NCBI GenBank assembly: GCA_016927115.1
Contig: JAFGNH010000080.1
Location: 1,492 to 65,491 of the forward strand
Direction: 5' to 3'
DNA length: 64,000 bases
From: Anaerolineales bacterium
Lineage (GTDB): Bacteria; Chloroflexota; Anaerolineae; Anaerolineales; E44-bin32
Notes under the pieces: generated by a model
What the model was told of the DNA's origin: nothing
Database searches by the model: none
What the model saw: the letters and a program-made list of their open reading frames with translations, nothing else
Translations under genes and position numbers: made by a program
Shown: positions 6,158-43,402 of the stretch, piece by piece
How the letters are laid out: the number at the start of each line of letters is the position of its first letter
Numbering within the stretch: position 1 is the first letter of the stretch

Positions 6158-6251
6158 TCCAGCTTTCCATCCGGATCGAATTTTACATTGTCGGAACACA
6201 GCCTTCATACTTTCTGAACAAGTTAACCATACACTGCTTCCATAAGAGCGG

Positions 6252-6734: not shown

Positions 6735-6768
6735 GGGCAGGAGGCTTCTTCATGGATCCGGTTCCAGT

Positions 6769-28235: not shown

Positions 28236-29030
28236 TTGAACGATCAATTATCAGCGCGTGAACGACGTGACCTGATCGCACGGCATGTCCATGAACGCCG
28301 CCGGGTTCAGGTTACAGAATTAATGGAAGAATTCGGTCTGACGGATACCTCCATTCGCCGGGATCTTACCATCCTGGAAGATAAAGGGCTCATCCGCCGG
28401 GTTCATGGCGGTGCTGTTTCCACCAATGAAGGCCTGCATAGTTCTGTTCTGGAAGACCGTATTTTGCAGCATGGGCTCGAAAAACGCAAAATCGGAGCTG
28501 CCGCTGCACAGTATATTCTGCCTCACGAGGTAATTTTCCTGGACACAGGCTCAACGGTACTGCACGTGGCGCGCAGTATTCCGGATTCAATCAAACAGCT
28601 TGGTTCACTGCGGATTGTCACCAATTCAACTTTACTTCTGGATGAAATCGGGATGTGGGCAACCCCCAATCTGATCCTGCTAGGCGGAATTTTCCTTCCA
28701 GATCACTGGGCGACTGTGGGCCCGGAAGTTCTGGATGCTCTAAAGCAGTATTCGGCACACCATGCTTTCCTCAGCTGTGATGGGTTGACACTGGAGGGCG
28801 GGATTACAACTGCTCACCCGCTCATCGCCCAGGCCGAGCGGGAAATGGCAAACCGCTCCGAGCAAGTTATTGTTCTCGCCGACCACAGCAAGCTTGGCCG
28901 ATCCGGTTTTGTTCCTATCATGCCCGTATCAGAAATTGATATTCTCATTACTGATTCCGGGGCATCTGAAGAGATGGTTGCTGAACTGTGTGGCAGGGGG
29001 GTTGAGGTTGTTGTTGTCCCGATGGGATGA
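28236..29030 (+). CDS. DeoR-family transcriptional regulator
   Basis: The N-terminal HTH is VQVTELMEEFGLTDTSIRRDLTILEDKGLIRRVHGGA. The C-terminal half is a DeoR sugar-phosphate-binding domain. It has a TTG start. Confidence 0.85.
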   Translation: MNDQLSARERRDLIARHVHERRRVQVTELMEEFGLTDTSIRRDLTILEDKGLIRRVHGGAVSTNEGLHSSVLEDRILQHGLEKRKIGAAAAQYILPHEVIFLDTGSTVLHVARSIPDSIKQLGSLRIVTNSTLLLDEIGMWATPNLILLGGIFLPDHWATVGPEVLDALKQYSAHHAFLSCDGLTLEGGITTAHPLIAQAEREMANRSEQVIVLADHSKLGRSGFVPIMPVSEIDILITDSGASEEMVAELCGRGVEVVVVPMG

Positions 29031-29473
29031 AATCAGTTCCAGATAATGTACAGCAGCAGTTTGCTTCCATCTTTCCTTCAGCCTGCCAGGGGATACGGGT
29101 TCTGCAACTGCTGCGGAAATAGTATCCCAACCCCAAAGCCGGGCGAGCAGGGTAAAGATGAATTTATCAGATCACCCCTGGGGGACTTTTTCCTCTGAGC
29201 TTTCAGCGGCACGGCAAACTTTCACACCAGCAGTCCCGCCATATTAACAATACGTTTTCTGTATCCTTCGTCAGGCCGGTATTCGGCTATTTTTTTCCCC
29301 TGGATTTCCTTCTGGAATTTTTTGTGAATACGGTGTTTGCGGACACTATTTCGCAGTTTGATAATGGGGGATAATTATTCTTTTTCGACCCTGGAGGAGA
29401 ATTCTCCAGACAATCTGCTGTATGATGTCAGGTAAAGTGTGGGTACATGTGAGCTTTTGAATAAGGAGGGTAG

Positions 29474-30099
29474 AATTTTCTTACGAATGCCACAATGATA
29501 AGCAGGAATCCAGAAGGAGAGATTAGCGCAAACGTGGCAGTCCTTATCAAAGTGACCATTTTGCAGCAGCAGGGAAAACGAAAGATCTTACTGGAAGATT
29601 CCCCTCAGAAAAAATCTAAAACTGCCAGGGAAACGTGCTTCTACCGGGACTGATTGACACTCATGTGTACAAGGCTCAGGCGTTGATCCGGGAGATGTGT
29701 ATGGTAAGCTATCTGGCAAAACTGCGTGTGCAAGAGCCAACTATGGTGCCTGCAGAAGCAGTTTTGGAGATGGCGACGATCAATGGGTCGAAAGCGATGG
29801 GGTTGGAAGGTCAGATCGGCTCTAACGAGGTTGGTAAGAAGGCCGACTTTATCATTATCGATATGGATAAACCGCATCTTACACCGGCTCCGGATCCTGT
29901 CTCGACAATTGTGTATGCCGCCCATGGCAGCGATGTGGATACCGTGGTCATCGATGGAAGGTCGGTGATGAAACATCGTGAAGTACAAACGTTGGATGAG
30001 CAGTCTATTTTATCTGATGCCCGCAGGCGTTTCCCGGAAGTGAAAAAGCGGGGTGGACTTGATATCAGCCCGCGCTGGCCTGTGGTGCAGCTGTCGTAG
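29474..30099 (+). pseudogene. Decayed amidohydrolase (MtaD/SsnA/cytosine-deaminase-like) gene: frameshifted N-terminus plus a large internal deletion
   Basis: One frame (29474..) reads NFLTNATMISRNPEGEISANVAVLIK, the N-terminal beta-sandwich of metal-dependent amidohydrolases. It is preceded by a TAG and lacks a start codon. A second frame (29635..30099) reads VLLPGLIDTHVY (a degenerate HxH motif), then only about 25 residues later reaches the C-terminal AVLEMATINGSKAMGL...GKKADFIIID...VDTVVIDGRSVM. The total is about 200 codons. Confidence 0.55.
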
Positions 30100-30121
30100 A
30101 ATCTCCAGAAAAAGTAATCAA

Positions 30122-30156
30122 CGCTCTGTTTTAGCTTTACCAGCCAATACAGAGCG
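30122..30156. terminator. Hairpin between convergent genes (possible bidirectional terminator)
   Basis: cgctctgt (30122..30129) pairs with acagagcg (30149..30156). On the minus strand it is followed by a T-rich stretch. It lies downstream of the last gene of the nine-gene operon. Confidence 0.35.
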
Positions 30157-30213
30157 CTGATGTTTCCCCGGGATTCAGCTGTAGTTGCTATGTACCAGAG
30201 ATCAAGGGACAGC

Positions 30214-30402
30214 TTAGACAATCCCTACACAGCTAAGGAAGAACCAGATCATAAAGGGGGCACCGGTGGAGAGAGCCGTCAGGAGGAACGCTGCCAGCGG
30301 CTGATTGTGTTTTCTGTAGATCAGCCTGGATAGAACGCCCAGGCAGATCAGCAGAATCAGCAGTTCCAGGATTATTAATAAAGGCGGTATTTGCATCATC
30401 AT
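30214..30402 (-). CDS. Small membrane protein (about 62 aa, 2 TM helices)
   Basis: I shortened the 123-aa ORF to the ATG at 30402 (MMMQIPPLLIILELLILLICLGVL...), which lies 2 nt after the upstream stop. The rest of the long ORF overlaps the upstream gene. Confidence 0.45.
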   Translation of the reverse strand: MMMQIPPLLIILELLILLICLGVLSRLIYRKHNQPLAAFLLTALSTGAPFMIWFFLSCVGIV

Positions 30403-30404
30403 GA

Positions 30405-30875
30405 CTATCCTCCCAGCAGAAGAAAGAGCAGTGTCCACACAGCAGCTGAAGCGAGTATGGTGCCTGCGAAACGCCGCCGGCTGTCCAGCTTGCAGCGATG
30501 CCGCAGCACTGCTGCAAACAACACCCCACCCCCCAGGTTGACCAGGAGCAGTCCCCAGAACCCTATGAAGAGTTCCATAAACCACGCTGCAGGAAGGATC
30601 ATAAAGCTGAAGATCAACGTAACCCAGAAAGGGCTTTTCCAGCCGGGGGTATCAGTCTCCGGTGGTTCTGATATTTCTTCCATATCAGCGAAACTCACGC
30701 TGGATGGTGTCGGGAAGGCGGCAGGATCAAGCTGCGTGGGTGCCTGCGTATTGAAGGATGAATCTGCAGGCAGTTCTTCTGTTGAAGACAGTTTTTTTCC
30801 ACAAAACCCGCAGAAAACGGCGTCGGAAGGAATTGCACTCCTACAGAAAGGGCAGAAATGCTGAGCTTGCTTCAT
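30405..30875 (-). CDS. Zinc-ribbon membrane protein
   Basis: 156 aa. It has an N-terminal CPFC-x11-CGFCG zinc ribbon, an acidic linker, then 3-4 TM helices. Confidence 0.7.
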   Translation of the reverse strand: MKQAQHFCPFCRSAIPSDAVFCGFCGKKLSSTEELPADSSFNTQAPTQLDPAAFPTPSSVSFADMEEISEPPETDTPGWKSPFWVTLIFSFMILPAAWFMELFIGFWGLLLVNLGGGVLFAAVLRHRCKLDSRRRFAGTILASAAVWTLLFLLLGG

Positions 30876-30927
30876 GATCGTTTCTCCATTACAGAACTCA
30901 TTTCCTGTTCACAGCGGGCTGCAGTTC

Positions 30928-32547
30928 TTATTCTGCCTGCTGCTGAATGTCTGAACTGATGAACCGGCGGGCCAGTGTATGGGCAGAAAAGTACATTGCC
31001 AGGGTTGTAACAAGCGGTGTGAGCCAGATCCATATTTCGAACCATACGTCTCCCAGGCTGAAACCGAAATTGAATCTGCTGAATTCGATAAGGTAATTTC
31101 CAACGGGAGTGGCCAGAGCGAAAGCGGCCCCCCAGAAAAGACCCAGCCAACCAGCCAGTTTCCAATCAGGTTTACGGGGGTTCAACAGGACAACAGTGCC
31201 TGCAGCTGACAGTCCCATGCATAAGAATGACACCAGAGACCAGGACATGTTGGGAGGCAGGTGCCAGCTCCATTCCACGCCGAGCCAGACACGAAGCATG
31301 GACAGGACTACCCACAGCAGCACAGTGCCGCCCATCAGCGGAAGGCTGATCCGGGTGAACTGGCGGATGGCAATCAGTGTGAAGATGCCACCGATGAGGC
31401 CCATAGCAGCGAAAGGCCATACATAATGCATATCAGTTAAGGCAAAGAGTGAGGTGATAACAAGCTCTGCCAGAGCCCAGCCGAGGAAAACCAGGCCAAG
31501 GCTGCTCCATAGTCGCCTGGTGTCGGGCTTTTTCTGCTCTTTTTCAGCAGCCAGTGAGTCGTTCAAAAGCCAGACCAGAAAGGCCCCCAGGAGTATTCCC
31601 ATAAGACCGTACGCTACAAGCGAACCAACATGGATAGCGCGTGCTCTGATACGAAACAGGGGAAACCAGCCGGAGAGCAGGATATACGCAAGGATGAACA
31701 TTCCTGTTATCCCGGTTGCCAACCAGCTGAGTCCCAATCCGAGTGCTTTGCCCCACTGCCGGGACCTGCCGAAGAGGAACAAGCCAAGTACAAGCCCTGC
31801 AACGCCTGGAATCGCGCCTTCGAACAGCATGGATCGCAGCTCCCAGTTAAAATACATTAATGAGTAGCCAATGTTGATCATTGCATACCAGAGAAATGTA
31901 AGGATCAACGTGCCTGCTGCTGCCTGCCACCAGTGTGTCAACCAGCCGTAAAGCCTGAGCAGGATGCAAATTACCCCGCTTGAAAAAAAGCCTAGTACAG
32001 TAAAGAACAGGACAAGGTCGAGGGCAACAATTTGCTTATGGGCCAGGTAGCCTGCAGCACTGCCCAGCATGGTTCCAAGGCCGGTGATCAGTACAATCCA
32101 TCCCGGCATAACCCCCGGTTTTACCGGGGTGCTTTTACGTTCTTTCTTGCGCCGCAGCTCACGCAGTTCCTTCTCCGGAGCTGTCTGCTTCTTCTCCGAT
32201 TTTGATTTTTCCAGTGCATGCCCGCATTCGATGCAGAAGCGTGCATCCACCATATTCATTTTTCCGCACTGCGGGCAGACGGTTCCACCCTGCAGTGATG
32301 GTGGAGGTGCTTCCTCCATCACCTGGGTTGGTGTATCTGCACGATCGATCCGTGTGACTGCATCCATATCAATATCGGGAGGAGAGGCTCCGGCCGGTGG
32401 GGTTTCTGATTGGGCCGGCTGCTGATCTAGTGTTTCTGTATCTGCGTCTATTCCGGGTATTTCCGATGAGGGCGAAAGCCGGGCTCCGCAGTATCCGCAG
32501 AACAGCTTGTCATCCGGGATTTCCTTGTTGCAGTTTGGGCATATCAT
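30928..32547 (-). CDS. Double zinc-ribbon polytopic membrane protein
   Basis: 539 aa. It has CPNC-x11-CGYCG and CPQC-x11-CIECG ribbons, a basic linker (RELRRKKERK), then about 12 hydrophobic helices. Confidence 0.75.
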   Translation of the reverse strand: MICPNCNKEIPDDKLFCGYCGARLSPSSEIPGIDADTETLDQQPAQSETPPAGASPPDIDMDAVTRIDRADTPTQVMEEAPPPSLQGGTVCPQCGKMNMVDARFCIECGHALEKSKSEKKQTAPEKELRELRRKKERKSTPVKPGVMPGWIVLITGLGTMLGSAAGYLAHKQIVALDLVLFFTVLGFFSSGVICILLRLYGWLTHWWQAAAGTLILTFLWYAMINIGYSLMYFNWELRSMLFEGAIPGVAGLVLGLFLFGRSRQWGKALGLGLSWLATGITGMFILAYILLSGWFPLFRIRARAIHVGSLVAYGLMGILLGAFLVWLLNDSLAAEKEQKKPDTRRLWSSLGLVFLGWALAELVITSLFALTDMHYVWPFAAMGLIGGIFTLIAIRQFTRISLPLMGGTVLLWVVLSMLRVWLGVEWSWHLPPNMSWSLVSFLCMGLSAAGTVVLLNPRKPDWKLAGWLGLFWGAAFALATPVGNYLIEFSRFNFGFSLGDVWFEIWIWLTPLVTTLAMYFSAHTLARRFISSDIQQQAE

Positions 32548-32618
32548 GATAGTCTCTTCTCCTGATTAAAATCTGTAAATCACACCGGTTCCTGCTGCCG
32601 GATTCCATATTCTATTTA

Positions 32619-34034
32619 TCAGAATTCTATACCAATTGTGCCGTCAGTTTTGATAAACATGTCACCGCCTTCAAAATCCGGCCGGCTGCCGTCGTGCCAT
32701 ACCATTGTGCCATCCCCTAAAACTTCATCAGGCGGCGGGATTTCTGGGCGGGTATCGTAGCTGCTGTAGTCGGAATCTCCGCTGCCCTGTCGGTCTTCGG
32801 CGTCGATGATCATGTCTATCGGAATAGCTGAAGCAGGCAGAGCCGGGATCTCGCCAGGTTCACCATCAGAAATATCACCTGCAGGGGGAGTGTAATCGTC
32901 CTGGATCATATCAATCGGGATGATATCAGCAGGAAGGACGTTTACAGGATACTCTTCGTCATCCGCAGTACTTCTCCTGTCACTATCCTTGACAGTATCT
33001 CCACCACTGAGATAAGAATCGGCGACAGAAGCGCCAATGGGGACAATAACCTGCAAGGAGCTTAATACCAGATCACCCAAGCCGGCGAAGGTGCGCATGG
33101 TGGGGAAAGTCAGTTTCTCTCCTGTTAGTTCCTCTGCCGTCTCTGCAAGGATCTCATCTGTCAGGGCTGTGTTTGGATCGAGGTTTTTAAGCCGGATCTG
33201 ATTCTCAGAAAGCTCTGGTGCAGCGCGGTCAAGGTTATCAGATCCCATATCTGATGCGGATCCGGATGAGGTTTCAGGAGTGCCGGGATTTTCCTGGCCA
33301 GTTTCGATTTCCGATGAATCCGGAGCAGGTATTGCAGCAGTTTCAAGAGGCTGCTGTGCTGCCCCGCCGCTGTTTTGTACCACAAATAGACCGGATTCGC
33401 TCTTAAGTACAAGGGGCGGGATCGTGGCTTCAAGGACAACAGAAAGGGGTTCTGCACCTGACTCAAGGGTGGGGATATCCAGGGTCTGTCCCGGGAAAAT
33501 CGTACCAGGGTTGTCACCGATAATACTTCGGTTGGCTTCGTGGATCAGCGGCCATAGTTCGGCGCGGCCGTAATAGCGCAGTGCCAGGCTGGACAGCATC
33601 TCACCCTCGGCGACCGTATGTTCCGTCAGGATAGTTCGTTCCAGCTTGGGCGTTTCAGCCGATTCCGGGACAGTTTCATCCTGGCGGCTGAGGTAAATCT
33701 GTTCTACAGGACTGTTTTCACGAATAAGCTTTGATGCCTCGCTTTTTTCGAAAACGGGGATCTCCTTGAGCGGGTCCTGTAAGCCTTTAACAAACGCTTG
33801 CGGCTCTGTTTCGACTGAATCAAGGTATTCCTGGAAGGCGCCCTTGAAGGCTTCAACAAGGTTCTCTAAAAGTGATGTGAATAATGTCTGGATTGCTTCA
33901 GCGTTGGAGTAATCGAGGATTCTCTCCAGGAAAGAACCGGGTTCATGGTTCAAATCATCCAGCTCGCTGCTTTCCAGCGAACCGCTATCAAATGTCTCCA
34001 TCGGGTCAACAAGTGAAAAAATATCGTCGTTCAT
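32619..34034 (-). CDS. Leaderless LysM-domain protein (short paralog)
   Basis: The LysM domain is HTVAEGEMLSSLALRYYGRAELWPLIHEANRSIIGDNPGTIFPGQTLDIP. The N-terminal segment EPGSFLERILDYSNAEAIQTLFTSLLENLVEAFKGAFQEYL is homologous to the N-terminus of the 1096-aa protein. The protein ends in GTIGIEF and has no signal peptide. I preferred the ATG at 34034 (AGGA upstream). The ORF-track GTG at 34058 is an alternative. Confidence 0.8.
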   Translation of the reverse strand: MNDDIFSLVDPMETFDSGSLESSELDDLNHEPGSFLERILDYSNAEAIQTLFTSLLENLVEAFKGAFQEYLDSVETEPQAFVKGLQDPLKEIPVFEKSEASKLIRENSPVEQIYLSRQDETVPESAETPKLERTILTEHTVAEGEMLSSLALRYYGRAELWPLIHEANRSIIGDNPGTIFPGQTLDIPTLESGAEPLSVVLEATIPPLVLKSESGLFVVQNSGGAAQQPLETAAIPAPDSSEIETGQENPGTPETSSGSASDMGSDNLDRAAPELSENQIRLKNLDPNTALTDEILAETAEELTGEKLTFPTMRTFAGLGDLVLSSLQVIVPIGASVADSYLSGGDTVKDSDRRSTADDEEYPVNVLPADIIPIDMIQDDYTPPAGDISDGEPGEIPALPASAIPIDMIIDAEDRQGSGDSDYSSYDTRPEIPPPDEVLGDGTMVWHDGSRPDFEGGDMFIKTDGTIGIEF

Positions 34035-34089
34035 CTTTCTTTCCTTTGTTCGCTCCACCTTGCATGTGAAACAAAGAGTGCGAAACCGA

Positions 34090-34824
34090 CTATATTGCAG
34101 GTGCCTCCTCTTTTTTCTGGCTGAGATGGCGGATCAGGAGCTGGTTGGCAGCCTGGAACTGTTTCAGTTCCTCAGATGGGAATGGGAACCGTGCGTTCGC
34201 CATACCCAGGACCAGCAGGCAATATGCCAGGTTACCCAGATGAGCTGATGAAATGTAGGCCTGGGTGATCCCCAGCGAACGCCAAAGATGAGCTAACGCG
34301 AATCGCCAGGTTGTTTGCAGCGGATCCTGCTCTTTTTCCGGCTTTGCGGCGTTTTCTTCCAGCATCTGATGCAGGAGCGAGTAGTCCGGATGGCTGATGA
34401 GCACGAAGTGCCCGTAGCGGCAGGGAGCTGCACAGTATTGGCAGCCCCGGGATTTCCTGAGGCGGTTCTGTTCGCTTGATCGACCGGGTGAACCGGCCAG
34501 GAGCGCCATCAAGGTGCTGAATACCCAGGCAGCACGTGGAGACTGGTGGGCAAGCCGGGCTGAGTGCGTGAGAGTTCCTGCAAACCTCTCATTGGGAGTC
34601 TGCTTTGCCAGGTAGAATTCGATGATTTTTTGGCAGGCCTCGGGAACTGTTTCAGCAAAGTATGCTGGAGTTTTCAATCCGGCGCGCTGAGCCAGTGCCT
34701 GGCGCAGCGGTCCTCCGGCCTGTTTGAAGTTATAGATATGCTCCGGCGGGCAGAAAGACAGAAGGTGCAGATAACTCGCTGTTTGCTGCAATCCCTGGGG
34801 AAGATGTTTTTCTGTTTGAGTCAT
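34090..34824 (-). CDS. Cys-rich protein of unknown family (paralog of 38237..38953)
   Basis: 244 aa with AGGAGG upstream. Blocks conserved with its paralog are SYLHLLSFCPPE, RGCQYCAAPCRYGHFVLIS and HLGNLAYCLLVLGMANARFPFP. Confidence 0.7.
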   Translation of the reverse strand: MTQTEKHLPQGLQQTASYLHLLSFCPPEHIYNFKQAGGPLRQALAQRAGLKTPAYFAETVPEACQKIIEFYLAKQTPNERFAGTLTHSARLAHQSPRAAWVFSTLMALLAGSPGRSSEQNRLRKSRGCQYCAAPCRYGHFVLISHPDYSLLHQMLEENAAKPEKEQDPLQTTWRFALAHLWRSLGITQAYISSAHLGNLAYCLLVLGMANARFPFPSEELKQFQAANQLLIRHLSQKKEEAPAI

Positions 34825-34882
34825 ATTTTTCCTCCTCTTAACGCTGTGGTGGAGTCCGAATGAACAGGTCCAACCGGTTTTG

Positions 34883-37800
34883 TTAGAACTCGATAGTCAC
34901 ACCACCGGGTTCCCCGCCGGTTTGAAGGAATTCACGGAGTTCTCCCGAAGGAATCCAGTCATCTTTGATCATGCCGCGCTGGTACAGCTCCTGCATTCGA
35001 TCCAGGCGATTGTCTCCGGCGCCGGCAGTGGTCTGCAGTTTGAAATCGAAATTGATATTAACCAGGTCTTGAAGGCCGAGTTGGAGAAGATCGTCACGAT
35101 TGAGGATATCGTCGCGATTGAGGATGTCATCACGGTTGAGGATATCCCAGCGAACCGTGGTGGGCAGATCAGCATAGTTGAGAATACCTCCCTGACTCGG
35201 GATGCAGATTTCTTTCAGGACTGAGGGCCAGGTTTCTGCGGATGGAAATGCTGCCTCCCGCAGGGAAGAATACAGGCTGGCGGGTATGGCCGATGCCGGG
35301 ATTGCTCCAGCGGCAACTTCCTGGCCGATAAAAATCTTCGTCCATGTGGTAAGCTGGTCGCCGGAAATGTTGTTCGCTATCTCCCTGTAGTCCGAAGTGC
35401 TGAGCCAGCTGAAATCCTTCTCCATCAGGGGAATATATTCGGTGGTGTTAACCCACTGGATCATTTCATTCCGGACACTGGCGGGGATGGCGGAGGCAGG
35501 GATGGCCTGGTTTCTGAGATCGTCAAAGAGCTCCCATTTCATACTGGCGGGAATGGCACTGGCTGGGATGGCACTGATTTTCTCGGCCAGAATGCTGGCG
35601 GGGATAGCGCGGGTGAACTCGTTCATGATGCTGGCGGGTATCGCCCGCGATCCGCCTTCACCGGCATTAAAAATTTCCACCATCAGGCTGGCTGGAATGG
35701 CGGAAGCCGGGATGGCGCTGGCAGGAATAGCGCGGGCAAGGGTTTCAAGCATACTGGCAGGGATTGCATCGGCGCTGAGCTCACCGGTATTCACCATGGA
35801 AATTAGGTCTGACGGACCCAGTGAATTCATCACACTGGCAATCTCTGACCGCAGGCTGGCCGGGATGGCGGAGGCCGGAATGGCTGATTGGATGTCCAGG
35901 AGGATGCTGGCGGGGATGGCGGAAGCTGGAATGGCAGAGGCTGGAATAGCACCAGCATCGATGTCTTTGAAAATCTCGACATATATACTGGCGGGAATTG
36001 CTGATGCCGGGATGGCCGACGCCGGGATGGCGCTGGCGGGTATGGCGCTGGCCGGTATTGCCTCGGCAATCGCCTGTAAAAGGCTGGCTGGAATAGCGGA
36101 AGCCGGGATGGCACTTGCCGGGATGGCCTGGGCCAGGTCCTGCAGGGCACTGGCGGGGATGGCTGAAGCCGGGATCGCTCCGTTTTCAATCCGGTTAAGG
36201 ACGGCTCCGAGGAAATCATCGCGGTTGAGAATATCATCTCGATTCAGGATATCATCGCGGTTGAGAATTTCCATCAGAACGTCAGGATCGAAGGCACCGG
36301 GGTTTACAGGATGGGCATACAGGTCCCCGGCTGCCAGCCGCTCCATCACACCATCGAAGAAGCCTGTGGGGATCTGGTCCAGGGGTACAGAGTTCAGGAT
36401 GTCTACCAGTTTTTCACTGGCGATTCCCTGCAGCAGGAAGGGTTCTTCGGCCGCGATCCGGCACAGCCGCTCATCGGGAAACAGCGAAAGGTATTCTGAG
36501 CTGCTCCAGTTCTTTGCCAGCCAACTGCTGGCGAGCAGCGGGTCCACAAGCGAATCAGTCATATCTGAAACGCTGATCCGTCCATCGTGCAGCGCCTGGG
36601 CGATCTGTTCGTACTGCTTAACCGGCAGCCATTCCGCGTCGTAATCACCCGAACTGATACCGGAGAGCAGGTCGTTCACATCGGCGGGAAGCTGCAGCTG
36701 GCCGCTATCATACAGGTCACGGGCGTAGGAGGGCAAAATCGATGGTTTCAGGCCGTGATTGAGCATCAGATCGTGTATATCCTCGCTGCTCAGCTGCTCA
36801 TCAAAGTACTCCCAGAACCCATCCTGCAGTAAGGCGCAGTTGTCGGGCAATAAAATATCACCTTCGCCGGTGCTGGCACAGGCGGTGATAAACGCACTGA
36901 GGGAATCCCTGTTCATCTGATCGAACGGCATGGCACCGGTCCACACGGCACGGGCGATCCCATCGAGCCTTTCAGGCGGCAGCTCGGAGGGCTGGATGTC
37001 TCCGGAAACAACTCGTTTCATAAAGTTACTTCCCATATCAGGAGCTTCATAGTCGGAAGCGCTGCGCGCCTCGTTGACCACGCCGGTGAGCCCGAAGATG
37101 GTCGTCTTTACACCTTCAGGCGCTTCGGCGGGCATATCGGCTGTATCTTTGGCGGCACCGCCTTCAGCCACTGCTGCAGAAGCACCCGCTTCCGCTGCTT
37201 CTGCACCCGCATCCGCATCCGCTCTATCGCCGGCGGCTTCAGCCGCTTTGCTGACTTCTTCACCCGGTTCGGCAGGCATTATTACCTGTGGTGCTTCAGC
37301 GACTCCACCAGTAACCGAAGCCCGCCCGGGATCCTGGGCAGGGATGGCAGGCGAATCTTCGTTGAAGTCAGGCATTGCATCGGCATCTGCTGGAGCGGTA
37401 TCCGAGACGGCTGCAGTACCAACTGCGGGAGCGGCAGCCTCCACGGGAGCGGCTGTATCTGCTGCTGGTGCAGTCTGCTCAGGGGGCTGGTAGGAAGCTG
37501 TCTCTACCGGCGTGTAGGTGCTCGGTGAGATCACTGTGCCCGGTCCGGGAGATGAGTCCAGTGGAGGGATCACAAATTCCTGCCCGGGATAAATCATGTT
37601 GGGGTTTTCACCAATGACAGCCTGATTGGCTTTATAAATCGCAGACCACATGGCTGCGTTTCCATAATAGTGCAGTGCAAGATGGGAGAGCGTTTCACCC
37701 TCAGACACAGTGTGTTCTGCTGCGGAGCTGGTTTCGACAGGTGTGCGCTGTTCACCCGAATCCGATACAGTACTGGAAGCAGAAGGTGTCTCTGTGAGAT

Positions 37801-38173
37801 GTGTGGATGATGCTCCGGTTGTTTCCACCATCTCCTTTTTAAACTCATCCAGCGCCTTGTCGACAAGTTCCTGGACCTCACTCTCACTGTACAGGTTTTC
37901 CTCATTCTGAAGCGGGGCTTCCAGTTCCTGCTGGAATGCCTCCGTATCGGTATGGACGATCGAGATATACTCCTGGTATGCGTCTTTGACTGCACCAGAG
38001 AGATTTTTTGCCAGGCTGACAAAGAAAGATTGAATGGCTTCAGCACTGACGTAGGAAAGGATGTTCTCAAGAACAGACCCCGGTTCCCTGACTGCCCGGT
38101 CGAGAGTTTCCAGGCCGGTTCCCATTTCTTCTGTAATTTTTGTGTCCTCAATGTGTTTATTCAAGTTGTCCAT
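34883..38173 (-). CDS. Leaderless LysM-domain giant protein with AIPAS and ILNRDD repeat arrays
   Basis: 1096 aa. It has an N-terminal domain shared with the 479-aa paralog, a LysM domain (37565..37714), an Ala/Pro/Glu-rich linker, a unique central domain, and then 27 perfect AIPAS units in 12 clusters bracketed by two ILNRDD triplets. It ends in GGVTIEF. No signal peptide or TM helix is present. Confidence 0.85.
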   Translation of the reverse strand: MDNLNKHIEDTKITEEMGTGLETLDRAVREPGSVLENILSYVSAEAIQSFFVSLAKNLSGAVKDAYQEYISIVHTDTEAFQQELEAPLQNEENLYSESEVQELVDKALDEFKKEMVETTGASSTHLTETPSASSTVSDSGEQRTPVETSSAAEHTVSEGETLSHLALHYYGNAAMWSAIYKANQAVIGENPNMIYPGQEFVIPPLDSSPGPGTVISPSTYTPVETASYQPPEQTAPAADTAAPVEAAAPAVGTAAVSDTAPADADAMPDFNEDSPAIPAQDPGRASVTGGVAEAPQVIMPAEPGEEVSKAAEAAGDRADADAGAEAAEAGASAAVAEGGAAKDTADMPAEAPEGVKTTIFGLTGVVNEARSASDYEAPDMGSNFMKRVVSGDIQPSELPPERLDGIARAVWTGAMPFDQMNRDSLSAFITACASTGEGDILLPDNCALLQDGFWEYFDEQLSSEDIHDLMLNHGLKPSILPSYARDLYDSGQLQLPADVNDLLSGISSGDYDAEWLPVKQYEQIAQALHDGRISVSDMTDSLVDPLLASSWLAKNWSSSEYLSLFPDERLCRIAAEEPFLLQGIASEKLVDILNSVPLDQIPTGFFDGVMERLAAGDLYAHPVNPGAFDPDVLMEILNRDDILNRDDILNRDDFLGAVLNRIENGAIPASAIPASALQDLAQAIPASAIPASAIPASLLQAIAEAIPASAIPASAIPASAIPASAIPASIYVEIFKDIDAGAIPASAIPASAIPASILLDIQSAIPASAIPASLRSEIASVMNSLGPSDLISMVNTGELSADAIPASMLETLARAIPASAIPASAIPASLMVEIFNAGEGGSRAIPASIMNEFTRAIPASILAEKISAIPASAIPASMKWELFDDLRNQAIPASAIPASVRNEMIQWVNTTEYIPLMEKDFSWLSTSDYREIANNISGDQLTTWTKIFIGQEVAAGAIPASAIPASLYSSLREAAFPSAETWPSVLKEICIPSQGGILNYADLPTTVRWDILNRDDILNRDDILNRDDLLQLGLQDLVNINFDFKLQTTAGAGDNRLDRMQELYQRGMIKDDWIPSGELREFLQTGGEPGGVTIEF
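35090..35143 (-). repeat. 3 x 18-bp in-frame repeat encoding ILNRDD-ILNRDD-ILNRDD (C-terminal copy)
   Basis: The units are atcgtcacgattgaggat, atcgtcgcgattgaggat and gtcatcacggttgaggat. They are identical as peptide and differ at synonymous sites. Confidence 0.9.
35276..36178 (-). repeat. Coding repeat region: 27 AIPAS pentapeptide units (15 bp each) in 12 clusters separated by short amphipathic spacers
   Basis: Read directly from the sequence. For example, gctggcgggtatggc reverse-complements to GCC ATA CCC GCC AGC, cgatgccgggattgc to GCA ATC CCG GCA TCG, and tgaagccgggatcgc to GCG ATC CCG GCT TCA. The cluster sizes are 2,3,5,3,2,1,3,1,1,2,2,2. Confidence 0.9.
36215..36268 (-). repeat. 3 x 18-bp in-frame repeat encoding ILNRDD-ILNRDD-ILNRDD (N-terminal copy)
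   Basis: The units are atcatcgcggttgagaat, atcatctcgattcaggat and atcatcgcggttgagaat. It lies immediately upstream (in protein terms) of the AIPAS region. Confidence 0.9.
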
Positions 38174-38236
38174 GAGTACCTCGAGCGTTCTTATTGGCAG
38201 ATGCAGTGTCAGTGGTGTGTGTTGGTTCCTGTCGGG

Positions 38237-38953
38237 TCAAACGTGTGCGGCGTTGGCCGGCCAGCCGGCAATCAGGGCCTGGTTCCACTCCTGAAAAGAA
38301 GCCAGTTCGGATTCGGGAAACGGGAGGCGGGATTTGGCCATGGCCAGAACCAGCAGGCAGTAGCTCAGGTTTCCCAGGTGGTACGGGCTGATGTACCCCT
38401 GCCGGGTTCCCAGAGTTCGCCACAGATGACTGGTAGTAAAAGACCAGGTGGCTTTGAGCGTGCCGCCGGGGTCCCTGCTGTTTTCGTGCTGCTCAAGCAG
38501 TTTCTGCAGCAGGGTGTATTCAGGCCGTGAAACGAGCACGAAAAATCCATAACGGCAGGGTGCCTGGCAAAACTGACAGCCGCGTGACGGGCGCAGCCGT
38601 TTGTTTTTTTCCGTCCGGGAGGGCAGGGAGCAGATGCGGTCCATCTGCTGTTGAAACAGATAGGCGGCTTCAGGGCTTTCCTGTGCAGTTTGTGCAGCCC
38701 GGCTTAAATCATTTTTTAGCTTTTGATCCGGGATGGGCAGGCGCTGGTGGAAAGCAGTGATACGGCGGCATGATTCAGGGATTGTGCGTGCGAAAAATTC
38801 CGCCTCCGGCAGGTCCGCCTGCAGAGCCAATCCACTGCGGAGAGGAAGGCCTGCCTGTGCAAGAGCATGAATCTGGTCCGGCGGGCAGAAGGAAAGAATG
38901 TACAGGTAGCTGATAGAGGCTTGTATTTCCTGCACGGTGAGAGAATCAGCCAT
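38237..38953 (-). CDS. Cys-rich protein of unknown family (paralog of 34090..34824)
   Basis: 238 aa with GGAG upstream. The conserved blocks are SYLYILSFCPPD, RGCQFCQAPCRYGFFVLVS and HLGNLSYCLLVLAMAKSRLPFP. Confidence 0.7.
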   Translation of the reverse strand: MADSLTVQEIQASISYLYILSFCPPDQIHALAQAGLPLRSGLALQADLPEAEFFARTIPESCRRITAFHQRLPIPDQKLKNDLSRAAQTAQESPEAAYLFQQQMDRICSLPSRTEKNKRLRPSRGCQFCQAPCRYGFFVLVSRPEYTLLQKLLEQHENSRDPGGTLKATWSFTTSHLWRTLGTRQGYISPYHLGNLSYCLLVLAMAKSRLPFPESELASFQEWNQALIAGWPANAAHV

Positions 38954-39004
38954 GGGGTTTTCTCCTTCAAACGATACGGTGGAGGCTGGTTATCGGGTGG
39001 TTCA

Positions 39005-41803
39005 CTACCGTTCCAGCCGCGGCATCGGTGTGTAGAATATTTTGGTCCAGGAGGGCATATCATCCTGGAAGCCTGCAATGATCGCCTGGCCGACTTTCAG
39101 GCGGGCGATGACTTCAGCCTGTTCTTCCTTGAGAGCCAGTGTGCCGGCCATGGTCTGGCGGTCATCAGCGGCGACAAGGCGATGAATGATCTTGAGATTG
39201 GTATTCTTGAGCGCATCGGGCACCAGTTTGGCAGGCACCTGGTCGATAATGGCAAGGCCCTGGCCGTAGGCACGTATTTCCGCGAGGATGTCGGCAAACA
39301 TCTCGCCCATCTTGGCTTGTGGGTTGGCACCGTAGGCAGTCTGAGGCGCCGCACGCAGGATGCGGTGCGCCTCTTCAAAGATGGCCAGGTGGCGCAGATC
39401 ATGCGATTCAGGGGACCCTTCCAGTTCATGCTGTGCCTGACGGTATTCGTACATGAAGTTCAGCAGCAGTGCCATGGTGAGGCACTTGTCGGCATCATCG
39501 CCCATCTGCTGCAGGTTGATTACGACCGGCCGGTCGAACAGGTCTGCCCAGGGGGTGGACTGCTGGCAGTTGAAGGTTTTTCCCTTCCAGCCGCGCAGCA
39601 GGCTGCCAATTCGTGTACGCAGGGCGGCGGTAATATTATCGGTGATACGCTGTTCGTACCCCTTGGATTTCACCAGATCAGAAATTCGATCATAGAGGTT
39701 TTCAAGAGTCGGGCAGCACACACCTGCCGGAGGCAGTTTATCCTGTAGCCATCCCTGGCTGTCATAGAGATCGACCAGGGCTTCTTCGAGAATGACGGGC
39801 AGGATCTCCTGCATCGGAAAGCTGGCGTTGAAGATAGACCGCAATCGGTCCAGGTGCGGCATCACCTGGGCTGTTGCATCCGGCAAACGGACAATGTCGA
39901 ACGGGTTAAGCTGCAGACTGTTGAGTTTCTCGCTGCCCCATTCCGTCCGTCCGGGCATATACACTGCTATTTTGCGATCAAAGGTGCCGGCCTGGTTATA
40001 GGCCAGTGCAAGCTGGACGTATTCCTCTTTCGCAGGTTCAATCACCATGAAGTTGACGTTTCGCTGCATCAGCTCTGAGATCAGCCGGCGGCAAGTATTG
40101 GATTTACCGCTGCCGGTGATTCCGGTGACGAAAACATGCCGCGTGAGTGAATTCAGATCCACTTCATAGGTGAGGTTCCCAACTTCTTCTCCGCCGTCCA
40201 GTATGGCGCCAAGCCGGATCGGATTTTCTTCCTTGCATATGGTGGGCGGGTTCAGGCTGAAACTGGCTGTGGGTTGAACAGGCAGCCCGGGCAGTTCACG
40301 CAGGGGAAGATTCGCGTACAGGGAGAGTTCTTCGGTGTTCAACAGAGTGGTCAGGTTTTCAAAGGCTTCCCCCAGCGGGTGGTGTACACGGTTTGCACTA
40401 TCCGGGGCGAACAGGCGCAGCGGAGGCTGTCGGAAAGCATCCAATGATACCTGGACTTGCCCATCCCAAACAGGATGCAGGTCATGGACCCGGATGGGTT
40501 CAAAGGCGCTTTTTTCACCGCTGACCAGGGCTTTCAGTTGTGATTGGGCCTGGGCGGTGGTTTCAGCCTGATCGCTCATGAGATACACCCCGACATTCCA
40601 GCAGCCCTTGCCGCGGGCAATTTCGAAGCGGGTGACGGTTTCCTGGAGAAGCTGTTCACAGGCTTCGGCGTGTTTGTTGAGGTATTCACGGCCGAAGGAA
40701 AGCGACTCGCTGGAGGATGTGCTTTCGGTGTCGGTGGTGCCGGCGGTCTCGCCGCGGGTCTGTCCGATTGAGCTTGAGGTGCCGCTGGAGGTGGAAGTAG
40801 AGGAAGAGGGCAGCAGCTGGCCGAACATACCCAGCATTCCCGATAGGGCGAAGCCACCCGCCAGCGGGATCATCAGCGCGCCGGCACCGGCCAAACCGAG
40901 TGCCTTCAACCCCTTCCCCACACCGCTGGAATCTGACAGAGCGGTTCCCAGGGCACCACGGCTGCGGCTTTCACTTGAACCGGTGGTGGTGCCCTCCGTC
41001 TCCGATGTAGAACTGCTGTAGCTGACAGAACGGGCGGAACTTTGGGAGGAACTGTCGCTGGTGCTGCGCTGAATGGTGGCTTTCGTAAAAGCGTGGATCT
41101 GGCTGGAAAGGGTACGGCAGTCGTGGATGATCTGGTTTACGCTGCTCTCAGGAACAGGATTGGCAAGTACCATGTACAGGTAGGGTTTACCGCGCAAGCC
41201 GCGCATGAACTGATCAAGGCTCTGGGGGTAGTCCGACGGTTTATCGGATTCGATGGGAGAAGGGATACCCGTGAACGAACGGGCAAAGCGGTATTCACTG
41301 AGAGGAATATGGATTTTACGGACGATCTCGTTGTAATCAGAAACGGCTTTAACCCTGGTCCCGGGCCAATTGGAACACAGGAACTGGCCGAGCTGGTCGG
41401 CAAACAGGCGCGGCTGCCCTCCCGGTGCTTGCGTCAGGATACCGATATAGATATCTGAGCGGAATCCATCGCTACTGATAAGGAACAGCAGGGAATAGCG
41501 CGGGTCGTGGCAGGCAGCAAGGGTGGTCTGGATGGCGCGCAGGTTCCTGGAGAAATCCTCGCTGACAGGCTGGCCAACCTGTTCCAGATGGAAAAAGGCC
41601 ACATCAGGAGGGGGAGGTGGTGCTTCCTCAAGCACACGGACATAGTTGGCGTCGAAGATGGGGCCGTCCAGATAGTTCCTGCTGAGAGCGAACAGCATTG
41701 CGCGTGAAATCAAGTCCCCGGTCGTGGTCAGCATTTCAACCGGAAGCTGATCCAATGGTTCCAGGTCTGTTGGGGCGGGTTCAATGGAGTGGTTCTCTGT
41801 CAT
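39005..41803 (-). CDS. HerA/FtsK-superfamily P-loop ATPase (DUF87-like) with a novel N-terminal domain and a Ser/Thr-rich, Gly-rich hydrophobic insert
   Basis: 932 aa. It has Walker A VTGITGSGKSNT, Walker B HLAIFEEAHRIL and the C-terminal NTNLKIIHRL. Residues ~246-369 (40697..41068) are Ser/Thr low complexity. They flank GLKALGLAGAGALMIPLAGGFALSGMLGMFGQLL, a probable membrane segment. Confidence 0.8.
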   Translation of the reverse strand: MTENHSIEPAPTDLEPLDQLPVEMLTTTGDLISRAMLFALSRNYLDGPIFDANYVRVLEEAPPPPPDVAFFHLEQVGQPVSEDFSRNLRAIQTTLAACHDPRYSLLFLISSDGFRSDIYIGILTQAPGGQPRLFADQLGQFLCSNWPGTRVKAVSDYNEIVRKIHIPLSEYRFARSFTGIPSPIESDKPSDYPQSLDQFMRGLRGKPYLYMVLANPVPESSVNQIIHDCRTLSSQIHAFTKATIQRSTSDSSSQSSARSVSYSSSTSETEGTTTGSSESRSRGALGTALSDSSGVGKGLKALGLAGAGALMIPLAGGFALSGMLGMFGQLLPSSSTSTSSGTSSSIGQTRGETAGTTDTESTSSSESLSFGREYLNKHAEACEQLLQETVTRFEIARGKGCWNVGVYLMSDQAETTAQAQSQLKALVSGEKSAFEPIRVHDLHPVWDGQVQVSLDAFRQPPLRLFAPDSANRVHHPLGEAFENLTTLLNTEELSLYANLPLRELPGLPVQPTASFSLNPPTICKEENPIRLGAILDGGEEVGNLTYEVDLNSLTRHVFVTGITGSGKSNTCRRLISELMQRNVNFMVIEPAKEEYVQLALAYNQAGTFDRKIAVYMPGRTEWGSEKLNSLQLNPFDIVRLPDATAQVMPHLDRLRSIFNASFPMQEILPVILEEALVDLYDSQGWLQDKLPPAGVCCPTLENLYDRISDLVKSKGYEQRITDNITAALRTRIGSLLRGWKGKTFNCQQSTPWADLFDRPVVINLQQMGDDADKCLTMALLLNFMYEYRQAQHELEGSPESHDLRHLAIFEEAHRILRAAPQTAYGANPQAKMGEMFADILAEIRAYGQGLAIIDQVPAKLVPDALKNTNLKIIHRLVAADDRQTMAGTLALKEEQAEVIARLKVGQAIIAGFQDDMPSWTKIFYTPMPRLER

Positions 41804-41830: not shown

Positions 41831-43402
41831 TCAGTCCTGAGCAAGCCGGTAGCGGATCGATCCGATGCGGATTTCATCTCCCTGGCGGAAGATGGTTGGC
41901 TGCTGTGGTGCAATACAGGCAGCGTTGAGATATGTTCCATTCGTGCTGCCCAAATCCACCAGGTAGAAAACCTCGCCATCTTTCCTGATTTCTGCATGGA
42001 AGCGGGAGGCCAGATCATCTTTGACCCAGACATCATTCCGGCTTTTCCTGCCGAGGGTTGTGATTCCTTTTATAAGCGGGTATTTCTCTCCGTTTTCCGA
42101 GACAAGATACCAGGCCTCCTGTTTGTTTTCGTCGGACGAGGCAAATGAAATGGTGGGCTGAGGTGCCGGGGTTTTTAAGGAAGAGCGGTTTTGTGAAATG
42201 CCGTATTCGAGTGCAACGCCTTTTACGACAATTTCCTCGGGGTTATCGGAGAGAAGGATTCGATCTTCGCCGAACTGATCGCGCAGGTGACGTACGATGG
42301 TAAACAGCTGTGAACCGCCACCCACCAGAACCACCTGATGGATATCCTCTATAGTGATTCCCATCGACTTGAGTGCGTTTGAGATCAGGTATTCAAAATC
42401 CGCAATCAGGTGGCGGGCGATACCCAGAAATGTGTCTTCCTCGAGCTGCACGGTGCTGCGAAATACGGAACCATCCCGCATAACCACGGTTATAGTACGC
42501 CTTGGTGTATGGAAGGTGCCGCTGGAGTTGAGCAGCTGGCGGCTCAGCGATTCTTTTAATTTACGGGCAGCATTACGCAGCGATATCAGTGCTGTGGGGT
42601 CATCTGCCAGAGCGTGTGCAGGAATTTCAAGTTTTTCAATGAGGTATTTTGCCAGTTCTGCATCATATAATCCGCCCCCGTGAGGTTCCCCGTAGTGGTG
42701 GGTGAATTCAATCTCTCCGGTCCGGGGATTGACTTTTCCGGCGACCATATCAGTTGTGCTTCCGCCGACATCAGCGATCAGGGTAAGGCCTTCAGGCCTG
42801 TCAGACTGCAGAAGTCCCTGGTGATACAGGCTGAGAATAGCTCCTTCAGGTTCCGGAATAAAGCGAATGCGTTCATGCATTGGTGGTTCGAAACAGGCAA
42901 GAATAATCTGTTTGAAGTCGTTAAGAATGCTGCCATCGTAGCCGAACTGCCAATAGACGGGATAGGCAAAGGAAAATCGGATCTGGTTGTTGAAAGGTTT
43001 GTTATACCATTTTTCTTCCTGAAGTTGATTCAAGACAGATTGCAGCAGCATACTGGTGTACGTCAGCGCCTGGTTATGCGTATAACGTTTCTGGTGCGGG
43101 AGGGGCGTTTTTTGCAAATGGGCTCCGATACATGGTTTGAAGTATTCGCGGATTCTTTCACGCACGTCCTCCTGGTCCATCTGTTGTGAAACGGTTTCGC
43201 CGTAGCTTTCAAGTGCTGTTCCGTCTGCGTTCATAAGCAGGGCGGCGGGGAGGTGACGGTCATAGAAGCTTGTGAGGGGGGAAGGCTGCGGATCGCTGAG
43301 CATATGAATGGAGTTTTGCTGGTGGAGATACTCCACGCGGTAAAGACGCCAGTTCGTTGCTCCACAGTCAAAGGCGAAAAGCGTTTCCTGTTGTCCGGTC
43401 AT
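41831..43402 (-). CDS. Hsp70/actin-fold ATPase fused to a C-terminal FHA domain
   Basis: 523 aa. The sugar-kinase/Hsp70/actin motifs are FAFDCGATNWR (phosphate-1), IADVGGSTTD (phosphate-2) and VVLVGGGSQ (adenosine). There is no Hsp70 substrate-binding domain. The C-terminal FHA is TLGRKSRNDVWVKDDLASRFHAEI...LVDLGSTNGTYLN...GDEIRIG. Confidence 0.8.
   Translation of the reverse strand: MTGQQETLFAFDCGATNWRLYRVEYLHQQNSIHMLSDPQPSPLTSFYDRHLPAALLMNADGTALESYGETVSQQMDQEDVRERIREYFKPCIGAHLQKTPLPHQKRYTHNQALTYTSMLLQSVLNQLQEEKWYNKPFNNQIRFSFAYPVYWQFGYDGSILNDFKQIILACFEPPMHERIRFIPEPEGAILSLYHQGLLQSDRPEGLTLIADVGGSTTDMVAGKVNPRTGEIEFTHHYGEPHGGGLYDAELAKYLIEKLEIPAHALADDPTALISLRNAARKLKESLSRQLLNSSGTFHTPRRTITVVMRDGSVFRSTVQLEEDTFLGIARHLIADFEYLISNALKSMGITIEDIHQVVLVGGGSQLFTIVRHLRDQFGEDRILLSDNPEEIVVKGVALEYGISQNRSSLKTPAPQPTISFASSDENKQEAWYLVSENGEKYPLIKGITTLGRKSRNDVWVKDDLASRFHAEIRKDGEVFYLVDLGSTNGTYLNAACIAPQQPTIFRQGDEIRIGSIRYRLAQD

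Follow-up and report, generated by a model that had tools for sequence, protein, structure and literature searches.

How can a bacterial gene retain dozens of letter-perfect peptide repeats while the codons that spell them are scrambled, and what would such repeats be for? This question is raised by the gene of a 1096-residue LysM protein in a 64,000-nucleotide stretch of DNA from an Anaerolineales bacterium of the phylum Chloroflexota (assembly GCA_016927115.1, contig JAFGNH010000080.1, positions 1,492 to 65,491; hereafter the window). The C-terminal part of the protein is built around the pentapeptide AIPAS and the hexapeptide ILNRDD. A first reading of the letters and open reading frames (the original prediction) had proposed strong selection on an old repeat. 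Both motifs are ancient and selected at every residue; their function is tentatively interpreted here as a multivalent docking display. Loci and proteins found in the searches are designated by L and P numbers, respectively.

Repeat arrays of the 1096-residue protein

A scripted unit map of the translation places exactly 27 AIPAS units between residues 666 and 966 (Table 1), in 12 clusters of 2, 3, 5, 3, 2, 1, 3, 1, 1, 2, 2 and 2 units, versus 0.004-0.013 units expected from the composition of the protein. ILNRDD occurs six times, in two arrays of three, one on either side of the AIPAS region. The unit and cluster counts and the two brackets claimed in the original prediction are exact on recount, and the spacers that it listed are correct. 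Spacers between the clusters are 7-57 residues long with length peaks at 7 and 12 residues, and the segment that follows a cluster conforms to the pattern [LIMV]-[LI]-x-E-[IL]-[AFI]-x: positions +1 and +2 are hydrophobic, position +4 is Glu in 22/43 clusters, and position +5 is Ile, Leu or Met in 31/43. Within the 1096-residue protein, the spacers are ~20% identical to one another, versus 100% for the AIPAS units. Residues preceding the clusters are variable, and no conserved cleavage sites were found beside the units.

An independent Logan contig (run SRR13394437) is 100% identical to the window over 13,398 bp (25920..39317) that include the entire gene. Because the two assemblies are identical, the array is reproducible and presents no particular assembly problem; collapse or expansion of the repeats, which the original prediction had wished to see checked, is excluded as an artefact. 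Tandem Repeats Finder reports only short, imperfect arrays of 15 and 18 nucleotides in the region. An open reading frame on the opposite strand (35397..36644 (+), 415 aa, with AGMA/AGIA repeats) was rejected as a shadow of the AIPAS codons rather than a gene, because perfect conservation is found only in the minus-strand frame.

Conservation of the arrays among orthologs

Relatives were found by exhaustive HMMER search, which yielded mostly LysM-only proteins, members of a family that shares the N-terminal domain of the window protein (P0006, P0009, P0013 and others), and three proteins matching the repeats. Orthologous loci, obtained from the contigs of P0013 and P0009, encode orthologs from other metagenomes with 1167 residues (L059) and 1084 residues (L075), which contain 32 and 28 exact AIPAS units, respectively, with ILNRDD arrays at both of the places that they occupy in the window. 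Array 2 is identical in all three proteins; in array 1, the third unit has decayed to IFNQGN in L059, and the three units are IINRDD ILNRDD ILGRDD in L075. Synonymous divergence among the three orthologs is saturated (dS about 1.4-2.2 by the Nei-Gojobori method), and aligned identity is 97-100% for AIPAS and 89-97% for I[IL]NRDD, versus 52-64% for the spacers and 63-70% for the remainder. The residue-level selection on an old repeat that had been proposed is thus supported, and the orthologs show the opposite of the poorly conserved low-complexity sequence that had been named as the refuting outcome.

Only two AIPAS units have decayed, to TIPSD in L059 (aa ~917) and probably to VIEVS in L075, the latter between two AIPAS units. 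The existence of decayed units indicates that units can mutate, and therefore that the remaining ones are kept by selection; some unit positions are dispensable, given their decay in single lineages. Among strain variants of L059 (L065 and L069), 160 AIPAS codons contain 13 synonymous and 0 nonsynonymous differences, compared to 23 synonymous and 7 nonsynonymous differences in the other 432 codons, and AIPAS cluster sizes are unchanged.

The number of units per cluster is also conserved. Across the C-terminal two-thirds of the AIPAS region, cluster sizes are the same in the window, L059 and L075, namely 3, 2, 1, 3, 1, 1, 2, 2 and 2 units. The first third has been remodeled as whole modules were gained or lost; the 5-unit cluster of the window is represented in L059 by 3-spacer-3-spacer-2-spacer-3. 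The original prediction had taken the variable unit number as a sign of a spacer, ruler or polyvalent-binding design; the number is not free but specific to position, which favors a ruler or geometry over a loose linker.

The gene that holds the frozen AIPAS arrays also contains a repeat of the slippage type, a GG[VA]AE array in the linker of the orthologs (genes L059:5203-8706 and L069:5825-9358), with copy numbers of 10+3 versus 13+2 in near-identical strains; at the corresponding place, the window (about 37118..37276) has only Ala/Glu-rich low complexity.

Codon usage within the arrays

The 27 AIPAS units are encoded by 24 distinct 15-mers. Alanine is encoded by GCC, GCA, GCG and GCT, isoleucine by ATC, ATT and ATA, proline by all four of its codons, and serine by AGC (10), AGT (7), TCC (5), TCA (2), TCG (2) and TCT (1), i.e., 17 codons of the AGY family and 10 of the TCN family, so that the synonymous scrambling across both serine families described in the original prediction is evident from the codon counts. 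Compared in pairs, the units have a mean nucleotide identity of 0.734, versus 0.707 +/- 0.009 for random synonymous draws at the window's own codon usage, and the deviation is confined to the two alanine positions (GCC excess). With unit identity near the level of random draws, the synonymous sites are therefore close to randomized. The longest exact DNA repeat within the region is 18 nucleotides.

The mixture of serine codon families is real; it is also structured and largely ancestral, and few independent switches are needed to account for it. Orthologous units share their serine family in 22 of 26 cases (Fisher p = 8e-4), which indicates that the AGY/TCN mixture is, for the most part, older than the split of the lineages. 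The cluster-final unit has an AGY codon in 12/12 clusters of the window, 14/14 of L059 and 13/14 of L075 (the exception being a single-unit cluster with TCG), and internal units have mostly TCN. Neighboring units differ in serine family in 11/15 pairs (p = 0.03) and 16/18 pairs (p = 5e-4) in two lineages, and adjacent units are less alike than shuffled ones (0.698 versus 0.734, p = 0.08; 0.667 versus 0.706, p = 0.04). The serine-family structure fits duplication of a putative ancestral module, [AIPAS(TCN)-AIPAS(AGY)-spacer]. Alternation of the families and the low likeness of adjacent units may also hint, weakly, at the selection against recombinogenic DNA identity, and thus against slippage, that the original prediction had suggested; the hint is weak because the two lineages are not independent and because the arrays of L036 and L060 (see below) use AGY throughout.

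Occurrence of the motifs in other proteins

A degenerate DNA pattern for AIPAS-AIPAS-AIP, applied to one genome per species, identified 56 loci. The strong ones are from Chloroflexota: two metagenome-assembled genomes (MAGs) of Chloroflexia (L036 and L024) and one of Anaerolineales (L053), in addition to an unclassified MAG (L054). The L036 protein (L036:263-2134 (-)) has 28 AIPAS units and a C-terminal array of 11 IINRDD units, the L024 protein has 15 AIPAS and seven IINRDD units, and the L053 protein has 18 AIPAS units with helical spacers like those of the window protein, along with ILNRDD-IISRDD-IISRDD. P0005 (L060:10001-12103), a protein of 700 residues, has 41 AIPAS units. In the Chloroflexia WXG100-type proteins (P0005 of L060 and the L036 and L024 proteins), exact AIPAS units are joined by quite different spacers (IPDGYVMIDNGNY). 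The DNA of the units is diverse in every array of at least 15 units, from 9/18 up to 32/41 distinct units. Sporadic runs of 3-6 AIPAS units in Streptomyces, Sorangium, Prevotellaceae and others have DNA identities of 0.87-1.0, which is the ordinary pattern of slippage.

A reverse search of metagenomes with an I-x-NRDD dimer pattern again recovered AIPAS proteins, namely the L059 strain variants and a more distant family member with two LysM domains (L070), in which AIPAS and I[IL][NSG]RDD are interspersed. AIPAS and INRDD thus co-occur repeatedly, being carried together by the L036, L024, L053 and L070 proteins. INRDD has the wider range of the two: proteins of another architecture, also recovered by the reverse search (L067:1813-3687 (-), L071:4641-6344 (+) and L072:231-1790 (+)), have 9-13 perfect I[IL]NRDD motifs in an N-terminal soluble region, organized as a super-repeat of 16 residues (ILNRDDILNRDDLLxx), then a single transmembrane segment and, at the C-terminus, a Cys-rich domain, and their INRDD repeats are probably cytoplasmic. 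At the site of the IINRDD arrays of L036 and L024, P0005 has a single degenerate LINAQD; the IINRDD number of the WXG-type proteins thus rises and falls far more rapidly than does the size of the AIPAS clusters in the window family.

The locus of P0005 is a type VII secretion locus: a 272-residue protein (matching PF27351), P0005, a WXG100 protein, a 1311-residue EssC-like FtsK_SpoIIIE ATPase, a YukD-FHA protein and three kinases are encoded in that order. The N-terminus of P0005 aligns end to end with the neighboring WXG100 protein, with the W-x-G motifs aligned (E 1e-5), and the AIPAS gene of L024 is likewise followed by a WXG100 gene. The N-terminal domain of the window family (alignment A1) has no relation to the WXG-type N-terminus by profile comparison (hhalign probability 0.1%). 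The motif pair is used in unrelated carriers, of which at least some are secretion substrates.

Related pentapeptides are AIPSN, found in the paralog P0013 and, in place of AIPAS, in a third LysM paralog of L059 (507 aa), and ALPAS, found in P0151. An Actinomycetota MAG (GCA_020444505.1) encodes a protein (P0035, L074:8001-11069) with a signal peptide, dozens of exact ALPSS units separated by helical spacers, and C-terminal PASTA domains, a design like that of the window protein, but from a different phylum and with a different domain for binding peptidoglycan. A word-indexed search of 5.8 billion proteins gave no relative among the matches listed for the full-length query, one weak ALPAS match among those listed for the repeat segment, and no homologs of the middle region beyond the orthologs; a protein-pattern scan of genome contigs found no relative. 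A phage origin was considered and rejected, as the AIPAS pattern had one stray match to a viral contig and the INRDD pattern had none.

Comparison with described repeat families

Neither AIPAS nor ILNRDD is covered by a match in Pfam, NCBIfam, PHROGs, PADLOC or PDB sequences, and full-text literature searches for AIPAS, AIPASAIPAS, ILNRDD and IINRDD returned nothing relevant. The statement of the original prediction that these repeats are not a described family therefore holds for every library searched and for the full-text literature. AIPAS and I[IL]NRDD are an undescribed motif pair of a familiar general kind, namely short tandem motifs of exported bacterial proteins, but are conserved in an unusual way.

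AniA of Neisseria has four contiguous AASAP repeats in the glycosylated region at its C-terminus, and two surface lipoproteins, Lip and Laz, contain the motif as well (PMC5542605). Like AIPAS, AASAP is a tandem pentapeptide rich in Ala, Pro and Ser with one Pro per five residues, located in surface-exposed parts of envelope proteins and shared by several unrelated carriers in one lineage (PMC5542605). AIPAS differs in its invariant Ile, in its 27-41 copies arranged in position-specific clusters with amphipathic spacers instead of 4 contiguous copies, in its pairing with I[IL]NRDD, in its phylum, and in its carriers, which have LysM domains or type VII features and are not lipoproteins; the likeness is compositional.

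Pentapeptide repeat proteins (PF00805, A(D/N)LXX with a central Leu/Phe) share with AIPAS a five-residue period that begins with Ala, but the position of Pro in AIPAS is incompatible with their consensus, helical spacers interrupt the array, and the clusters, with 1-5 units each, do not have the length needed for the coil stack of a quadrilateral beta-helix. Pentapeptide-repeat models of Pfam do not match the window protein, P0005, which has no Pfam match of any kind at E <= 0.1, or the L036 protein, for which the Pfam scan gave only a sub-threshold match to Big_11. ILNRDD has no Pfam match as a hexapeptide of the left-handed beta-helix (PF00132), and its Leu and Asp at positions 2 and 5 violate the consensus of that family, [LIV]-[GAED]-x2-[STAV]-x.

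The PE_PGRS and PPE_MPTR proteins of mycobacteria are type VII substrates with a conserved N-terminal secretion domain and polymorphic C-terminal repeats. The Chloroflexia AIPAS proteins resemble them in having a WXG100-like N-terminus, type VII loci and a repeat-rich C-terminal region, but have no sequence relation to them, and their units are letter-perfect in contrast to the polymorphic Gly/Asn-rich PGRS and MPTR repeats. The window protein is more distant, with a different N-terminal domain, a LysM domain, and neither WXG100 nor EssC neighbors. CagA of Helicobacter has the exact pentapeptide EPIYA, a docking and phosphorylation motif, in variable number near the C-terminus of a secreted effector, where it acts as a multivalent short linear motif. 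It is the functional analogy behind the interpretation favored here; strains vary in their number of EPIYA copies but not in their AIPAS cluster sizes, and the secretion system, the host-directed function and the sequence are different as well. Synthetic PAS polypeptides are made from repeat genes that engineers stabilize by scrambling codons. AIPAS arrays resemble them in their scrambled synonymous codons and in a composition that predicts an uncharged, non-helical, extended chain, but are natural and selected, with an invariant Ile, a fixed register and intervening amphipathic spacers.

Domain architecture and gene neighborhood

The sole library match of the 1096-residue protein in a Pfam-A hmmscan (E <= 0.01) is LysM, with 20.8 bits against a cut-off of 20.9. 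Despite this borderline score, the LysM assignment of the original prediction is real, being borne out by profile matches to PHROG 380 (5.7e-17), NCBIfam PRK11198 (3.1e-12) and, in PDB, Kbp (7.2e-7) and gp61, a phage tail tube initiator that carries a LysM annotation. The acidic helical N-terminal domain is common to the long protein, its short paralog and metagenomic proteins. Its profile matched nothing meaningful in PDB; a match to a cytochrome c555 trimer looks like a repeat or compositional artefact and was rejected. The linker is the fastest-evolving part of the protein (50% identity to the ortholog, with indels), and the middle region, with modules such as LPPERLDGIARAV, LPADVNDLLSGI and IPTGFFDGVMERL, is 79% identical to the ortholog. 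C-termini of the family are conserved as [TGES]-I-[EQ]-F-COOH (TIEF, GIEF, EIEF, TIQF and SIEF), as seen in the window (34886..34897), P0006, P0009 and the L059 and L075 orthologs, and may be a terminal recognition signal.

The short paralog is about 35% identical to the long protein across the first ~285 residues and, as had been observed in the original prediction, contains single degenerate versions of the motifs, one each of LPADIIPIDM and LPASAIPIDM; it is plausible that the AIPAS arrays grew from a single motif of this kind. The pair of partner gene and LysM gene has been tandemly duplicated in the window (32619..38953 (-), encoding 238 and 1096 and then 244 and 479 residues).

Table 1. 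Features of the AIPAS/ILNRDD gene and of its module in the window
Feature	Position	Strand	Basis or remark
LysM/AIPAS/ILNRDD gene, 1096 aa	34883..38173 (stop codon included)	-	Open reading frame list, translation, independent assembly
Acidic helical N-terminal domain, aa 1-130, signature EPGSxLExxxDYxxAEAIQ	37784..38173	-	Alignment A1, 11 family members
LysM domain, aa 154-203, Kbp/phage-tail-X type	37565..37714	-	Profile searches
Pro/Ala/Glu-rich low-complexity linker, aa 206-370	37064..37558	-	Ortholog comparison
Middle region, aa 371-635, degenerate hydrophobic-Pro plus short-helix modules	36269..37063	-	Segmentation
ILNRDD x3 array 1, aa 636-653	36215..36268	-	Unit map
AIPAS array region, aa 666-966	35276..36178	-	Unit map
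ILNRDD x3 array 2, aa 1011-1028	35090..35143	-	Unit map
C-terminal tail, aa 1029-1096, ends TIEF-COOH	34886..35089	-	Open reading frame list, family C-termini
238-aa all-helical partner gene	38237..38953	-	Always directly upstream of family LysM gene
244-aa paralog of partner gene (48% identity), upstream of short LysM paralog	34090..34824	-	Sequence comparison
Short LysM paralog, 479-aa open reading frame (471 aa in Logan record)	32619..34058	-	C-terminal GIEF
932-aa HerA/DUF87-type P-loop ATPase	39005..41803	-	Profile searches
523-aa Hsp70-like ATPase with C-terminal FHA domain, first gene of module	41831..43402	-	Profile search

The genes for the Hsp70-FHA protein, the HerA/DUF87 ATPase, the helical partner of ~240 residues and the N-domain-LysM protein constitute a module, for which no description was found in the searchable literature. 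The same order is found, fully or in part, in L059, L062-L064, L070 and L075, also where the LysM protein is without AIPAS, and the ~240-residue proteins of the module are 47-80% identical. L059 encodes an Hsp70-FHA-like protein, a DUF87 ATPase, a 238-residue protein and the 1167-residue ortholog; L075 encodes a 949-residue DUF87 ATPase, a 238-residue protein, the 1084-residue ortholog, and proteins of 244 and 411 residues. The Hsp70-FHA gene is also present in L062 and L063, and its counterpart in L059, identified by position, is a 515-residue gene cut at the end of the locus. The ATPase gene is conserved upstream in L059, L062-L063 and L075 (930-950 aa across loci). The 932-residue ATPase of the window contains a region rich in Ser and Thr and a single hydrophobic segment (about aa 301-327); its best NCBIfam match is ser_rich_anae_1 (1.8e-28), and its FtsK_SpoIIIE match (25.4 bits) spans the P-loop only, as in the single-P-loop DUF87/HerA type. 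PADLOC gave only a generic HerA/mad8 ATPase, so that the module is not assigned to a defense system. The 238-residue partner has no family match in library scans, and its AlphaFold2 model (pLDDT 39.9) is too poor to use. WXG100 and YukD models matched none of the seven cluster proteins scanned, the small open reading frames being outside the scan, and the window locus is without the EssC-like makeup of a type VII locus.

Genes for zinc-ribbon (DZR) membrane proteins follow the LysM genes of the window (30405..32547 (-)) and also flank AIPAS or INRDD proteins elsewhere (L053:1433-3252, L070:506-1522 and 5364-6428, L071:4133-4666), a triple zinc-ribbon membrane protein preceding the INRDD protein in L071. 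Such genes are common in Chloroflexota and the link may be incidental. Genes for ArnT/PMT_2-like membrane glycosyltransferases are present in the window (6628..8997 (+)) and in L059 (L059:20413-21079), with no tight linkage. The sole Rfam match of the window is a tRNA gene (55744..55817 (+)).

Possible functions of the repeats

The favored interpretation, held tentatively and with somewhat less than even confidence, is that AIPAS and I[IL]NRDD are an undescribed, Chloroflexota-associated pair that forms a multivalent docking display in the variable C-terminal portions of proteins that are exported or associated with the envelope. In the window protein, each cluster-final AIPAS leads into a short amphipathic segment to make a 12-residue module (AIPAS-hhxEhhx, h being hydrophobic), and the extra tandem copies would be non-helical connectors punctuated by Pro, their number fixed at each position. 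The array would then present identical docking peptides (stickers) at defined spacings, with the copies per cluster setting valency and geometry; a conserved partner, possibly an envelope component or a part of the export machinery, would read the peptides, and the LysM domain would tether the protein to peptidoglycan or the cell envelope. AIPAS works beside helical spacers (window and L053) and beside spacers that resemble beta-hairpins (L036 and P0005), as expected of an autonomous short linear motif and not of a part of one fold; this behavior is the reason that a sticker-and-spacer display is favored.

Several points weigh against a docking display. The partner is hypothetical, and the 1096-residue protein has no visible signal peptide or transmembrane segment, so that its location outside the cell or in the envelope is inferred only from the LysM domain and the analogy with type VII substrates. 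The neighboring ATPase is of the HerA/DUF87 type and has no proven role in secretion. INRDD cannot act only outside the cell, since it is found in probably cytoplasmic parts of the L067, L071 and L072 proteins; INRDD at least may be read inside the cell, e.g., by export or chaperone machinery. Conservation of cluster sizes by position is accounted for by a structural ruler no less well than by docking. A bolder version of the docking display, which we regard as unlikely, would be a two-word recognition code of Chloroflexota, common to type VII substrates and LysM module proteins and recognized by a conserved reader (an envelope polymer, chaperone or translocase), in which the cluster number would be a selected code of valency or length, protected from slippage by serine-family alternation and codon scrambling.

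AlphaFold2, run without an alignment, gives an all-helical model of the 1096-residue protein at low confidence (mean pLDDT 47.6), in which the spacers are helical and are modeled with more confidence than the long AIPAS runs. With this weak model, the top Foldseek matches are all HEAT, ARM and PPR solenoids, with template modeling scores (TM) of about 0.1 and none with E <= 0.001. These results are compatible with both docking and structural readings and are not evidence of a fold; the lower confidence in AIPAS runs would fit a flexible display, if weakly. They are nonetheless of the kind expected if the C-terminal 700 residues were an alpha-helical solenoid, with IP(A)S as a helix-starting turn, AIPAS-hhxEhhx as the idealized module, extra AIPAS copies as loops of defined length, and conservation imposed by packing and geometry instead of binding. 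This structural explanation, the main rival of docking though somewhat unlikely in our judgment, also accounts for the regular hydrophobic/Glu pattern after each cluster, for the degenerate hydrophobic-Pro plus helix modules of the middle region, and for the conservation of cluster sizes by position in three orthologs. It is weakened, apart from the low scores of the model and its matches, by the near absence of A/S or I/V/L exchanges, normally tolerated in such repeats, from 27-41 copies in several lineages, by identical units beside non-helical spacers in the type VII-type proteins, and by runs of 5-8 units with Pro at every fifth residue, which cannot be helix caps. AIPAS as a helix capping box is a weak idea, the Glu being at +4 and not +3.

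An array of modification acceptors, in which AIPAS would be a sequon for O-glycosylation or phosphorylation of Ser or for hydroxylation of Pro on a densely decorated stalk, is not a probable explanation either. The Pro/Ala/Ser composition and the invariant Ser agree with it, as does the occurrence of Ser/Thr kinase genes at or near the loci (three in L060; a kinase gene along with zinc-ribbon genes in L053 and L059) and of PMT_2/ArnT-like glycosyltransferase genes in the window and at the end of L059, and the glycosylated AASAP region of AniA is a precedent (PMC5542605). However, genes for modifying enzymes are not regularly found next to the repeats, the glycosyltransferase gene of the window is about 26 kb away, and ILNRDD, without Ser, Thr or Pro, would be left unexplained as the paired motif. 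Furthermore, an invariant Ile and two invariant Ala exceed what bacterial O-glycosylation sites are known to need, and FHA domains bind phospho-Thr, not phospho-Ser. Perfect units with drifting spacers are the signature of multi-copy peptide precursors, and the identity of the units is kept across different carriers, so many identical copies of the AIPAS pentapeptide and the ILNRDD hexapeptide might be cut out of the protein to serve as signals or building blocks; yet the absence of conserved cleavage sites flanking the units and of a peptidase or maturation enzyme conserved beside the gene, the large multidomain carrier, and the conservation of the spacers and cluster numbers as well make a precursor very improbable. 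Neutral low complexity, recent slippage or assembly artefact is refuted. Slippage is seen in the sporadic 3-6-unit runs of GC-rich genomes from other phyla, whereas the window units have diverged synonymously like random codon draws, the independent assembly is identical, and, at saturated dS, both the units and most cluster sizes have been preserved in three orthologs and two strain variants; the dismissal of recent slippage in the original prediction is borne out on each of these counts.

Implications

Short tandem repeats of bacterial surface proteins are usually seen as fast-evolving filler driven by slippage, but the AIPAS and ILNRDD repeats are frozen instead. Residues that are frozen, copy numbers that are kept by position and flanks that drift are together the signature of a specific molecular reader. 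Both motifs can be used as search patterns for proteins that are now annotated only as LysM or hypothetical. If the reader were found, it would provide a natural example for the study of how perfect peptide repeats are held stable in a gene, would link the type VII substrates of Chloroflexota to a second, undescribed module centered on an ATPase, and would give a handle on protein export or envelope assembly in this large and poorly studied phylum.

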